Part shown: piece after piece, positions 24,038 through 26,652 of the stretch | Layout: each line of letters opens with the position of its first letter | Position numbering within the stretch: position 1 is the first letter of the stretch | From: Escherichia phage vB_EcoM_Lh1B | Strand: one strand, 5' to 3' | Sequence record: OK428535.1 | DNA length: 64,000 bases | Notes under the pieces: model-generated | Seen by the model: only the letters and a program-made list of their open reading frames with translations | What the model was told of the DNA's origin: nothing | Databases searched by the model: none | Made by a program: the position numbers and the translations under genes

Positions 24038-25315
24038 ATGGCAAACTTTGTAAAAAGTAAACTCGCCCGCGAGTCCGTTGAAGCTACCGGCGACGTAATC
24101 GACGGTCTGAGCAACGTTGAACCGGCAGAAGAGAACATCGACGTTCAGCTGGCAGAAGTTGCGTCTATCGACGGTCAGCTGGAACAGCTCGATGGTGACC
24201 AGGAAACCCTGGCTGCTGATACCGAGTGTACCGAAGCTGCTATCGACGCTGCTGACGAAAAAATCGAAAACGGTGAAGAGATGCCTGAAGAAGCCATCGC
24301 TCACACCGAAGTGGCGCAGGAATCTATCCGTAAACGTTGGGCTATCGATCGTACCAAACTGGCACGCGAATCTTATCGCCGTGGCCGTGGCATGACCAAA
24401 GCAGCTCAGGAAGGCTGGAAAGAAACCCTGAAAGATCTGTTCAAGCGCTTCGTTGAACTGTGTAAAGCAGTTATCGCGAAAGCGAAAGAGCTGAAACTGA
24501 AATACATCAACGTTGGTAAGTCTGCACAGAAACGTGCGAAAGCTTACCAAGAGATGCTGCGTAAGCTCGGTAAGCAGAAGAAAGAAAACATCTCTGGCGG
24601 CTTTATTAGCAAACTGTCTATCGAAGGCGACTTCGATGTGGCCAACTCCATCGCTATCGCGAAAGAGCTGACCGGCGGTAAAGCGAAAGACGCTATCAAC
24701 AAGCTGTCCTCTCAGGCGTCCGAATCTGCTGTAGCGATCACCAAAACCGCAGAAGGTACTGCAACGGCTGCTAAAGGCGCTGTTGATGTTGCCCTGTTCG
24801 GTACCGCTGCTAAGAAACTGCGCACCCTGCCGCAGTTCGAAGATGGCGAAGGCGGTCAGAAAGTTCTGGCACTGCCAGGCAACGCCTATGTGCAGATCGG
24901 TAGCAAAACTCTGGCCGGCGGCCAGGACTTCACTGCGGTGGCGTTCCTGTCAACTGGCGACTCTACCGACACGAAAGAGATTGCTACCCCGGCAATTACC
25001 GCACTGGCGTCTGCAGCAACCGCTCTTGATGCGATCGGTAAAGGCTTCGAGAAAGTGCTGCAGGACTTCCGCTCCTATGACGCCGATGTTGAGAAACTGG
25101 AGCAGGCTGCTAGCAAAGCTGCTGCTGCCCTGGATAAATCCAACGACGAAGGCGAGTGGGAAGCACTGCGTAATGCACGTACTGCAGCCGACCAGGCTGT
25201 GCGTAACTACCAGACTCTGAACCGTGCCGTGGCGCATGTTGGTAACACTGTTATCAGCGGCCTGAACGGTTACATCGGTGCTGGTATCGGCGCGTACGAA
25301 AAGTCTAAAGCTTAA
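24038..25315 (+). CDS. abundant acidic protein, paralog A (425 aa; likely virion component)
   Basis: Strong host-optimal codon bias; N-terminus MANFVKSKLARESVE shared with downstream paralog. Confidence 0.75.
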   Translation: MANFVKSKLARESVEATGDVIDGLSNVEPAEENIDVQLAEVASIDGQLEQLDGDQETLAADTECTEAAIDAADEKIENGEEMPEEAIAHTEVAQESIRKRWAIDRTKLARESYRRGRGMTKAAQEGWKETLKDLFKRFVELCKAVIAKAKELKLKYINVGKSAQKRAKAYQEMLRKLGKQKKENISGGFISKLSIEGDFDVANSIAIAKELTGGKAKDAINKLSSQASESAVAITKTAEGTATAAKGAVDVALFGTAAKKLRTLPQFEDGEGGQKVLALPGNAYVQIGSKTLAGGQDFTAVAFLSTGDSTDTKEIATPAITALASAATALDAIGKGFEKVLQDFRSYDADVEKLEQAASKAAAALDKSNDEGEWEALRNARTAADQAVRNYQTLNRAVAHVGNTVISGLNGYIGAGIGAYEKSKA

Positions 25316-25366
25316 TCCGCTTTACGTACCAAACGTCGGTTGACATATCATTACAAACGGCACGCG

Positions 25367-25382
25367 TCTTATCGCCTAGCGG
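25367..25382 (+). promoter_or_regulatory. promoter-like motif variant (CTTATCGCCTAGCGG)
   Basis: Similar to 23989-24005 motif; followed by similar GGACCGAAA leader. Confidence 0.3.
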
Positions 25383-25392
25383 ACCGAAAAAG

Positions 25393-26652
25393 ATGGCTAA
25401 CTTTGTAAAAAGTAAACTCGCGCGTGAATCTGTCGAAGGCACAGGTACTGTCGTTCCGGACGGTATCGAGCTGCCGGCTGAGTCCGTAGAAGGTACTCTG
25501 GCTGACATCGAGCACGACACTAAACCGATCGACCAGCTGGATGCTGAAGCAGATGTGCTGGCAGAAGACGGCGACGAAACCGACGCGCAGCTGGATGCAG
25601 TTGATGCTGCTGAAGCTGCTGCTGACGGTGAAGGTGAAGATGGCGAAGAGCCAATGGAAGTGGAAGAAGATATGCCTGACGAAGCTGCTGAGCAGCTGGA
25701 CGTTGCGCAGGAATCTATCCGTAAACGTTGGGCATTCGACCACCGCGTAAGCGTTGCGCAGGAATCTTACGGTGCACGTAAGCGCCGCCAGGTTGCTCGT
25801 GAAAGCCTGTGGGACGACATCAAAGCGTTCCTGCAGCGCATCTACGACTGGCTGAAAGAACAAGGCCGTAAGGTTAAAGACCGTTGGCTGAAGTTCAGCA
25901 ACCAGGGTAAATCCATTCAGGCGCGTGCTAAGAAATATGACGCTGCTCTGCGTGGCCTGGGCAAGCAGAAGAAAGACACCGTTAGCGGTGGGTTCATTAA
26001 GAACCTGACCACCGGTGGTAAGTTCGTCGGTGACGACATCAACGTCCTGAAAGAGCTTCTGTCTTCTATCGGCAGCATCTACGGTGAGCAGGATGCAGTT
26101 GTTGCAGCCGCTACCACTATGGTTGGCGCAGTTGAGGCTGGCAAACGGGTTGGCGGTTTCGCAGCAGCGGTTAACAAAGCAACTGCAGGTAAAGCGGGCG
26201 AAGTTCAGCTGCTGGGCAACCAGATCGGTAAAGCCGAAGTGAAAGTGAACGGGGATGACCTGGAAGCTTCCTTCAATGTTATCGACGCCGAAGGTAGCGT
26301 AGAGCAGTCTGTTTCTACTCCGTCTCTCACGACTCTGTCTTCCCTGGTTGCGTTCTTCAACCAGCTGGGTAAAGCAGTCGAAGAGAACGTGAAAGCATAC
26401 CACAAAAATAACCAGGCTCAAGAGCGTTACGAGCAGGCTATTGAGAAACTGCTGAAACGTATCGACGGCGTGAAGATCGACGACAACGCAGAACTGACTT
26501 CCAACGTCCGTGTTGCACGTCGTGCAATCACCGTTGCGAACCAGTACATCTCCTGGACCGAACGTTGCGTTGCANCCGGCCANAAAAACCTGATCGCCGG
26601 CGTTAACGGCTACATCNGCGAGGGTATCGGTGCGTACGAAAAGTATAAGTAA
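25393..26652 (+). CDS. abundant acidic protein, paralog B (419 aa)
   Basis: Shared N- and C-terminal sequence with 24038-25315 (..GLNGYIGAGIGAYEK); strong codon bias. Confidence 0.75.
   Translation: MANFVKSKLARESVEGTGTVVPDGIELPAESVEGTLADIEHDTKPIDQLDAEADVLAEDGDETDAQLDAVDAAEAAADGEGEDGEEPMEVEEDMPDEAAEQLDVAQESIRKRWAFDHRVSVAQESYGARKRRQVARESLWDDIKAFLQRIYDWLKEQGRKVKDRWLKFSNQGKSIQARAKKYDAALRGLGKQKKDTVSGGFIKNLTTGGKFVGDDINVLKELLSSIGSIYGEQDAVVAAATTMVGAVEAGKRVGGFAAAVNKATAGKAGEVQLLGNQIGKAEVKVNGDDLEASFNVIDAEGSVEQSVSTPSLTTLSSLVAFFNQLGKAVEENVKAYHKNNQAQERYEQAIEKLLKRIDGVKIDDNAELTSNVRVARRAITVANQYISWTERCVAXGXKNLIAGVNGYIXEGIGAYEKYK

Follow-up and report, generated by a model that had tools for sequence, protein, structure and literature searches.

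A tandem pair of probable internal head protein genes related to SPN3US gp53 and gp54

The gene pair and its products

The window, which is the whole 64-kb stretch of DNA that was analysed, contains a pair of adjacent genes. The original prediction of neighbouring genes of 425 and 419 amino acids agrees exactly with the open reading frames found:

24038..25315, + strand: gene 1, gp53 orthologue, PF12699 internal head / ejection protein, 425 aa precursor (ORF, similarity, CAI, AF2 model)
25393..26652, + strand: gene 2, gp54 orthologue, PF12699, 419 aa precursor (ORF, similarity, CAI)

In BLASTP, the two products align over their full length with 36% identity (E 6e-59), so the similarity is not confined to the termini. 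The shared termini and internal blocks that had been reported are therefore borne out. The first 15 residues are identical and the C-termini are nearly so (GLNGYIGAGIGAYEK in gene 1 and GVNGYIXEGIGAYEK in gene 2). The blocks VAQESIRKRW, LGKQKK..SGGFI, and NGYI..GIGAYEK are common to both. Gene 2 contains three N bases, so that residues 395, 397, and 409 read as X. A search of the window for a third paralogue found none at E <= 10.

Both genes have the host-optimal codon usage that had been claimed for them. The CAI is 0.687 for gene 1 and 0.663 for gene 2, using the Sharp & Li E. coli weights, against a window median of 0.315 (sd 0.11, 60 ORFs). The one higher value, 0.701, belongs to the major head protein gene (40290-42590).

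The AF2 model of the gene 1 product (pLDDT 81.9, pTM 0.78) predicts disorder in residues 1-27 and mostly long helices in the remainder. There were 102 matches in BFVD at E <= 1e-3, and those with names are internal head or virion structural proteins of jumbo phages. ClyA-family alpha pore-forming toxins are weak Foldseek neighbours, without a significant match to their helical tail and beta-tongue fold. Searches of the PDB turned up no experimental structure for the helical body, and HMMER gave no link from the pair to the deposited phiKZ chains, the sequences being too distant.

Relationship to SPN3US

The counterparts of these genes in SPN3US are gp53 (SPN3US_0053) and gp54 (SPN3US_0054), which have the same flanks. 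Gene 1 is identical to gp53 at 406 of 425 residues (95.5%) and gene 2 to gp54 at 390 of 416 (about 94%). The 15-residue N-terminus is also identical in the SPN3US pair, for which identical N-termini and AXE cleavage have already been reported (PMC5694885). The order of gp50 through gp55 agrees between the phages, with DHFR downstream. This conserved order, gp52-gp53-gp54-gp55 around the pair, and the reciprocal high identity are those of an orthologue pair. Neighbouring genes encode gp50 and gp51, which are virion structural proteins, and the window also includes the gene of the major head protein. The window is 98-99.8% identical to the 240-kb Salmonella SPFM phages (Seoulvirus), and the nucleotide identity to SPN3US is 92.8%.

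Both proteins match PF12699 (phiKZ_IP) well above the cut-off of 27 bits, gene 1 with 260.2 bits over residues 44-415 and gene 2 with 186.4 bits over residues 42-408. Both also match PHROG 2497 (phrog_2497), "internal head protein", with E values of 1.9e-150 and 4.4e-134, respectively. The tandem pair is present in Seoulvirus, Erskinevirus, Machinavirus, and Derbicusvirus. Pairwise alignment and dN/dS had been suggested as a check. The full-length alignment was informative; between the paralogues, synonymous sites are saturated (pS 0.63, dS about 1.34) and dN/dS is uninformative, so orthologues were compared instead. Their dN/dS of 0.10-0.30 indicates purifying selection.

No sequence feature contradicts the gp53/gp54 assignment. 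We put the probability at roughly 0.95 that the pair is gp53/gp54 ("paralog family A", PF12699) of an SPN3US-like Salmonella jumbo phage of the genus Seoulvirus, in the phiKZ-like lineage. The identity and main interpretation of the pair are already known from published SPN3US work. The original prediction of very abundant paralogous virion or internal-head proteins is supported by the orthology, by PF12699 and PHROG 2497, and by SPN3US proteomics. The virion proteomics called for as a check is available for SPN3US, in which there are > 600 copies of each protein per capsid, ranking after only the major capsid protein (PMC5694885).

Propeptides and maturation

Each precursor can be divided into a putative propeptide and a putative mature part:

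24038..24412, + strand: gene 1 propeptide, codons 1-125, pI 4.4, AXE motifs at E12, E95, E111, and E125 (motif and pI computation)
24413..25312, + strand: gene 1 mature part, codons 126-425, pI 9.3, 31.5 kDa, predicted long helices and a small beta subdomain (AF2, pI)
25393..25803, + strand: gene 2 propeptide, codons 1-137, pI 4.1, AXE motifs at E12, E107, E124, and E137 (motif and pI computation)
25804..26649, + strand: gene 2 mature part, codons 138-419, pI 9.2, 30.3 kDa (pI computation)

The pair had been described as acidic. This is true of the precursors (pI 5.3 for gene 1 and 4.8 for gene 2) and not of the mature parts, which are basic; the acidity resides in the propeptides alone. In SPN3US, gp53 and gp54 have propeptides of 125 and 137 residues that receive multiple cuts, and cleavage by gp245 was obtained in vitro (PMC10052503). 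The gp245 motifs mapped there, ARE-12, AQE-125, AQE-124, and ARE-137, are all present here at exactly the published positions (E12, E125, E124, and E137). The putative maturation site of gene 1 is AQE-125|GWKETLK, which matches the MS-mapped site of SPN3US gp53 (PMC10052503, PMC7411985). That of gene 2 is ARE-137|SLWDDIK, which likewise matches the MS-mapped site of gp54 (PMC10052503). In most comparisons, constraint is stronger on the propeptide than on the mature part.

Proposed role in the head

Knowledge of abundance, cleavage, and ejection comes from SPN3US or phiKZ and not from this phage. Both genes would be expressed at very high levels late in infection, as their host-optimal codon usage and AGGA ribosome-binding sites suggest. 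Transcription is probably as a single unit ending at a terminator at 26663-26700; the codon bias and the terminator are observed here and co-transcription is presumed. The precursor (~45 kDa) would begin with a disordered N-terminal peptide (MANFVKSKLARE|S), followed by an acidic propeptide of ~125 or ~137 residues that is modelled as helical and a basic, helix-rich body. By analogy with SPN3US, for which this is documented in the literature, hundreds of precursor copies would enter the prohead and build a T=1 shell inside the T=27 capsid. The prohead protease gp245 would then cut after AXE at E12, E95/E107, E111/E124, and E125/E137; the MS evidence comes from SPN3US and the motifs are kept here. 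The basic mature parts would stay among the packaged DNA. The SPN3US literature classes them as ejection proteins, and they would be expected to exit with the DNA. Injection has been directly shown only for the phiKZ homologue gp93, which accompanies the injected genome inside the early infection vesicle, and is assumed by extension for gp53/gp54.

It is possible, if not the likelier emphasis, that the chief role of the pair is as an assembly scaffold or core, with the T=1 inner shell setting the size of the T=27 prohead and stabilizing it, and with persistence in the head and ejection being secondary. In SPN3US, the inner shell of procapsid-like (mottled) capsids is T=1 and consists mainly of gp53 and gp54 (PMC7552025), and 243(am114) mutant heads, which are without both proteins, are unstable (PMC5694885). 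Proteolytic removal of the acidic propeptides is also a trait of scaffold or core proteins, and expression estimated from codon adaptation is on par with that of the capsid protein. However, the mature parts are kept in DNA-filled heads at the high copy number given above, unlike classical scaffolds (PMC5694885), and phiKZ gp93 is injected and remains with the genome (bioRxiv 10.1101/2024.03.24.586471). Scaffold and ejection roles are not exclusive, so the difference is one of emphasis and not a true alternative.

A slightly less probable role is that of a wall-bound cement, in which propeptide residues from about 13 to 90 would be retained on the inner capsid wall as fibres bridging hexamers. 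In phiKZ, gp93 lines the capsid with its N-terminal arm, and the helical part is injected (PMC11297242; bioRxiv 10.1101/2024.03.24.586471). Residues 14-84 of this protein bind two adjoining hexamers, beginning exactly at the protease site (PMC11297242). The E12|S13 site was present in 16/16 sequences examined, peptides of the SPN3US gp53 propeptide are still detectable in heads (PMC10052503), and between gene 2 and its SPN3US counterpart, dN/dS is 0.011 in the propeptide and 0.23 in the mature part. Against this, PDB searches gave no sequence-level match to gp93, and AF2 predicts long helices at 34-100 in place of the beta-arm and helix-loop-helix of gp93. The published SPN3US capsid maps also have no such densities assigned.

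Comparison with phiKZ and T4

The phiKZ proteins gp93, gp95, gp97, and gp162 share with the present pair the family PF12699, clustered paralogous genes, a helix-rich body, and a high copy number in the capsid. The N-terminal propeptides of phiKZ internal head proteins are cut after (A/S)XE by an S80-family prohead protease, for which the motifs are the counterpart seen here. phiKZ differs in having 5-8 paralogues and a visible cylindrical inner body, whereas SPN3US-like phages have two paralogues at a much higher copy number and a mature head without an ordered inner body (PMC5694885, PMC7552025).

The T4 proteins IPI-IPIII, with their capsid-targeting sequence, appear alike in working, an analogy taken from PMC5694885. 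They are small, basic, and abundant head proteins. A short conserved N-terminal peptide directs them to the head and is removed after Glu by the prohead protease, and the proteins are injected with the DNA. In contrast, proteins of the gp53/gp54 type are larger by a factor of four to five, carry long acidic propeptides, and assemble into an ordered inner shell in the procapsid. The pair had no Pfam or PHROG match to the T4 IP families, and the resemblance is functional only.

After the capsid protein, the pair is the main protein mass in the head; it forms a unique inner shell during assembly and is thought to enter the cell with the genome. This has been published for SPN3US and phiKZ already, and the present pair adds no new kind of system. 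The details added here are the concerted N-terminus, the acidic propeptides with basic bodies, the conserved leader hairpins, and a module that appears to have been swapped by recombination. It is somewhat doubtful, at a little under even odds, that three of these are jointly new: the concerted N-terminal peptide, the conserved leader hairpins, and the exchange of a block (the mature part of gp53 plus gp54) as a unit between near-identical phages.

The N-terminal peptide

The N-terminal peptide evolves in concert in the two paralogues. Its identity is 7.0/8 within a genome and 3.9/8 between genera, with the remainder of the paralogues at just 36%. Nucleotide-level identity between the paralogues within the N-terminus is found in codons 3-9 only. 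A recent gene conversion spanning all 45 N-terminal nt was considered and rejected, as codons 1-15 have a pS of 0.64, which equals the gene-wide value. The N-terminal identity is therefore maintained at the protein level. A concerted peptide of ~12 residues would fit a shared signal for capsid targeting or protease docking, either co-evolving with one partner or homogenised through micro gene conversion. Probably, the dodecapeptide is a targeting or docking signal common to both proteins; the pattern is observed here, and the function is our inference. As a candidate capsid-targeting tag, such a signal could be used to load foreign proteins into the heads of jumbo phages.

Leaders, hairpins, and terminator

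The non-coding features around the genes are as follows:

23964..24023, + strand: conserved non-coding/overlapping element 5' of gene 1 (six-phage alignment, fold)
24024..24027, + strand: Shine-Dalgarno-like AGGA, 10 nt before the gene 1 ATG (read from sequence)
25316..25392, + strand: gene 2 intergenic leader (hairpin of relatives, leader identity)
26663..26700, + strand: predicted strong intrinsic terminator, 11-bp stem, UUCG loop, then U-run, closing the gene 1-gene 2 unit (top-ranked terminator-like site)

Conservation in a 3.4-kb alignment of six phages is highest in the element 5' of gene 1, which also holds the longest invariant run, 27 nt at 23964-23990. The element consists of a GC-rich hairpin, CACGUCCCU ... 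AGGGGCGUG, with an inner GCCCC-loop-GGGGC, and then GTGTAATTGGGTTATAACC. The hairpin extends across the stop codon of the gp52 orthologue that precedes gene 1 (23424-23981). Across seven phages from four genera, all of its stem positions are invariant and the loop is variable. The predicted fold has an energy of -25.3 kcal/mol (z -1.9). AGGAA before gene 1 is invariant in six phages (Seoulvirus, Erskinevirus, and Machinavirus) and is shifted in position in two Derbicusvirus phages.

Relatives also have a hairpin before gene 2, directly 5' of its TAGAGGA ribosome-binding site. It is supported by three compensatory pairs in six phages and by four different stem sequences in eight phages. Here, unlike in SPN3US, it is degenerate, having lost 4/8 pairs, and the final 24 nt of the leader are nearer to the gene 1 leader. 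The window's own gene 2 leader folds without a local hairpin (z -0.3). The hairpins before both genes may set the mRNA stability, processing, or translation of the most abundant internal head proteins.

The terminator has a predicted energy of -23.2 kcal/mol (z -4.1), and 0/200 shuffles were equally stable. Near the genes, sigma-70-type promoters occur at the level of shuffles, with no enrichment, and plus-strand TATG, as in phiKZ-type late promoters, is absent from both intergenic regions. Such late promoters are impossible to predict from sequence (PMC7598289). An invariant 20-mer that opens with TATG at 23880-23899, within the upstream gene, could speculatively be one.

Age of the duplication and recombination

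The original prediction held that the two genes share upstream elements and that the duplication included regulatory DNA. CTTATC occurs at 23990 and 25368, GGAACCGAAA at 24025, and GGACCGAAA at 25381. When the two ATGs are aligned, the CTTATC/CTAG pairing is offset by 23 nt, and the pattern CTTATC N0-4 CTAG matches gene 2 only. The intergenic local alignment scores 14 against 12.1 +/- 2.0 in shuffles, of which 21% score as high. The distal CTTATC..CTAG was therefore rejected as a common regulatory motif, leaving as the shared part the last 24 nt before the ATGs, which are identical in register at 16/24 positions in this clade only. GGACCGAAA was also rejected as a window-wide motif, with 14 matches at one mismatch or fewer against 16.4 expected. 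TTATCTA shows mild enrichment across the window, with 11 sites against 5.2 expected, in contexts without further similarity.

Both paralogues are present in four genera, so the duplication is ancient and predates the split of these genera. A recent tandem duplication that copied gene, promoter, and leader, making the upstream strings homologous regulatory DNA, is very improbable and largely refuted: the 24 nt of leader lie within an in-register direct repeat of 77 nt (24014-24090 and 25369-25445, 78% identity), and their identity is in the top 0.15% of window gene pairs, but synonymous sites are saturated, the proteins are just 36% identical, the distal match is at chance level, TTATCTA 5' of gene 1 lies in the loop that is variable in relatives, and in relatives, the leaders agree at only 11-12/24 positions (SPN3US, pEa29, and phiEaH2) or 6-7/24 (Machinavirus; background 6.8). 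The claim that regulatory DNA was duplicated with the genes thus finds no support in the form given, and the leaders do not appear to be homologous across all genera. Since the proximal likeness is restricted to this clade, it reflects later convergence or a small gene conversion and not retention since the duplication.

The gene segment appears to be a recombination mosaic relative to SPN3US. A divergent allele is present here at 24500-26500, with 82-94% nucleotide identity to SPN3US compared with 97-100% in the flanks. The mature regions are the part most divergent from SPN3US.

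Identity of the gene pair

The original prediction that two adjacent genes of the window encode very abundant paralogous internal head or virion proteins is correct; it is established by experiment for the orthologues in phage SPN3US and was already known. What is added here (the N-terminal peptide, the leader elements, the terminator with a 21-mer, and the mosaic) is modest and testable.

Features of the gene pair and its surroundings
23857-24034, conserved element before gene 1; no other part of a 3.4-kb alignment of six phages is as conserved
24038-25315, + strand, gene 1, ORF of 425 aa
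25355-25380, site that in relatives forms a hairpin directly before the ribosome-binding site of gene 2 (7455-7480 in the relative L001, with equivalents in L002-L005, L007, and L008)
25393-26652, + strand, gene 2, ORF of 419 aa
26663-26700, strong terminator after gene 2 (z -4.1)

Compared with the Salmonella SPFM jumbo phages, the region shows 98-99.8% identity; for SPN3US (genus Seoulvirus), the figure is 92.8%. The counterparts of gene 1 and gene 2 are SPN3US_0053 and SPN3US_0054, which have the same neighbors. Identical residues number 406/425 between gene 1 and gp53 and 390/416 between gene 2 and gp54. Both products match PHROG 2497 (internal head protein) and Pfam PF12699 (phiKZ-like phage internal head proteins), the latter with 260 bits for gene 1 and 186 bits for gene 2 (cut-off, 27 bits).

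Both ORFs lie exactly where they had been placed from the sequence alone, 77 nt apart. Their products are 36% identical end to end (BLASTP, E 6e-59). This alignment is full-length, so the similarity extends beyond low-complexity termini. An alignment with similarity confined to such termini had been named as a possible refutation, and the outcome favors the original prediction. [quoted passage not shown] No third paralogue was found within the window. N bases at 26576, 26584, and 26618 give three X in gene 2 (residues 395, 397, and 409). There are 280 N across the window, and other ORFs are affected too. The N-rich SPFM GenBank records resemble the window in N content, and megablast splits them into 40 pieces.

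The AlphaFold2 model of gene 1 (input of 41 homologues; pLDDT 81.9, pTM 0.78) has a disordered stretch at residues 1-27, long helices at 34-77, 84-100, 119-175, 201-238, 320-367, and 371-418, and a small beta subdomain at 277-316. Among solved structures, none was matched by sequence search and none was significant by Foldseek with this model. It is matched by 102 predicted viral structures, and those that have a name are internal head or virion structural proteins of jumbo phages.

Abundance and processing

The extreme host codon bias noticed earlier is evident, with a CAI of 0.687 for gene 1 and 0.663 for gene 2, whereas the 60 ORFs scored have a median of 0.315 (Sharp and Li E. coli weights). 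Among these ORFs, only that of the major head protein (40290-42590, 766 aa) is higher, at 0.701. Virion proteomics, the other proposed refutation, is published for SPN3US and found very high abundance. There, gp53 and gp54 are called "paralog family A", occur in >600 copies each per head, and among virion proteins are exceeded in abundance only by the major capsid protein (PMC5694885). In protease-deficient "mottled" capsids, they form a T=1 inner shell beneath the T=27 capsid (PMC7552025). A member of the same family, phiKZ gp93, is attached to the inner capsid wall through residues 14-84 (PMC11297242). After packaging and injection, it remains in the early infection vesicle together with the genome (bioRxiv 10.1101/2024.03.24.586471).

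The SPN3US prohead protease gp245 cleaves after AXE, and recombinant gp245 cuts gp53 in vitro. Maturation occurs at AQE-125|GWKETLK in gp53 and at ARE-137|SLWDDIK in gp54, with additional cuts at ARE-12 and AQE-124 (PMC10052503, PMC7411985). By sequence, every one of these motifs is at the same position in the window proteins. The proteins had been described as acidic. This holds for the precursors (pI 5.3 for gene 1 and 4.8 for gene 2) and comes from the N-terminal 125 residues of gene 1 (pI 4.4) and 137 of gene 2 (pI 4.1), but the rest of each protein is basic (pI 9.3 and 9.2). The block encoding VAQESIRKRW (24308-24348 and 25699-25739) has 90% nucleotide identity between the paralogues, and gene 2 has a shorter VAQES copy at 25752-25779. 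Protease-site modules, A(Q/R)E|S, are thus repeated within the propeptides.

Age of the pair and the N-terminal peptide

The tandem pair occurs in Seoulvirus, Erskinevirus, Machinavirus, and Derbicusvirus, so the duplication is older than these genera. Between the paralogues, pS is 0.63, dS is 1.34 (saturated), and pN is 0.41. Between orthologues, dN/dS is 0.10-0.30, and variation is greatest in the central mature region.

The identical 15-residue N-terminus was already reported for gp53 and gp54 and likened to T4 capsid-targeting sequences (PMC5694885). In the eight residues before ARES, identity averages 7.0/8 between paralogues within one genome, but only 3.9/8 between orthologues from different genera. 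Both paralogues carry VKSKL in SPN3US-type phages, AQRKI in pEa29, and MNFMQ(K/Q)RA in Derbicusvirus. Evolution of the N-terminal peptide is concerted between the paralogues. Each replacement needs only one step from ancestral codons that were identical. Micro gene conversion may be behind this pattern. Codons 1-15 have a pS of 0.64, equal to the gene-wide value, and the N-terminal identity is therefore maintained at the protein level. A concerted peptide would fit a common partner, such as the protease or an incorporation factor. In SPN3US, gp243 is required for incorporating gp53 and gp54 (PMC5694885).

Upstream and downstream elements

The original prediction also held that the duplication included regulatory DNA, and this is not supported. 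The CTTATC and CTAG strings do exist upstream of both genes, but measured from the start codons, the positions that they pair are 23 nt out of register. Aligned locally, the intergenic regions score no better than chance (14 versus 12.1 +/- 2.0 in shuffles, reached by 21% of them); with the last 20 nt removed, 68% of shuffles are as high. CTTATC..CTAG was thus rejected as a shared leader motif. In relatives, TTATCTA upstream of gene 1 falls within a variable hairpin loop; CTAG upstream of gene 2 belongs to the conserved TAGAGGA ribosome-binding region.

The proximal leader is another matter. An in-register direct repeat of 77 nt (24014-24090 and 25369-25445, 78% identity) spans the final 24 leader nt and the first 53 coding nt of both genes. 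In the window, the two leaders agree at 16/24 positions, which ranks among the top 0.15% of window gene pairs. The figure is 12/24 in SPN3US and 11/24 in both pEa29 and phiEaH2; Machinavirus has 6-7/24, against a background mean of 6.8. At four of the five bases that separate the window's gene 2 leader from that of SPN3US, the window's base equals gene 1. The likeness is thus lineage-specific convergence or a small conversion, not regulatory DNA kept since the duplication.

Over three to four genera, no part of the locus is better conserved than the element at 23857-24034, which takes in the gp52 orthologue's 3' end, a GC-rich hairpin, and the intergenic region. In the six-phage alignment, a 27-nt invariant run spans the stop codon of the gene upstream of gene 1. 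The hairpin stem is invariant and its loop variable in four genera. The element may serve the gp53-gp54 transcript as a late promoter, a site of mRNA processing, or a stability element. An invariant 20-mer, TATGCAGACCACGAACTGCT (23880-23899), opens with TATG, the phiKZ late-promoter tetranucleotide.

In relatives, compensatory changes preserve the gene 2 hairpin, which among eight phages has four differing yet complementary stems: GGCGGTAC/GTACCGCC, GGTGGGGC/GCCCCACC, AGGGGCC/GGCCCCT, and AGGGGTCA/TGACCCCT. In the window's clade, the hairpin is broken. The window has 4/8 pairs disrupted, and no local structure is predicted at the site.

The 21-mer AGATATATATTACCTAGGTGA (+ strand) is exact at 26726-26746, just downstream of the terminator behind gene 2, and at 35844-35864; a copy at 42869-42889 has three mismatches. 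By chance, no copy would be expected. A + strand gene follows closely after the copies at 26726 and 42869, and the copy at 35844 is ~600 nt from the next listed ORF. The 21-mer looks like the AT-rich early-promoter type (virion RNA polymerase) of phiKZ-like phages (PMC7598289).

Mosaic relative to SPN3US

Nucleotide identity to SPN3US is 97-100% in the flanks (17900-24500 and 26500-32800) and 82-94% in 24500-26500, which covers the gene 1 mature part and nearly all of gene 2. The dS versus SPN3US is 0.024 for the gp53 propeptide and 0.35 for the mature part. The left edge of the mosaic is near the propeptide/mature junction of gene 1. The internal head protein module appears to have been exchanged through recombination between otherwise near-identical phages.

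In the gp51 orthologue (22423-23400), the longest ATG ORF begins 35 nt within the gp50 orthologue and has 325 aa. The start annotated in SPN3US gives 310 aa (compared with L001 4569-5501), and translation probably starts at the ATG further downstream.
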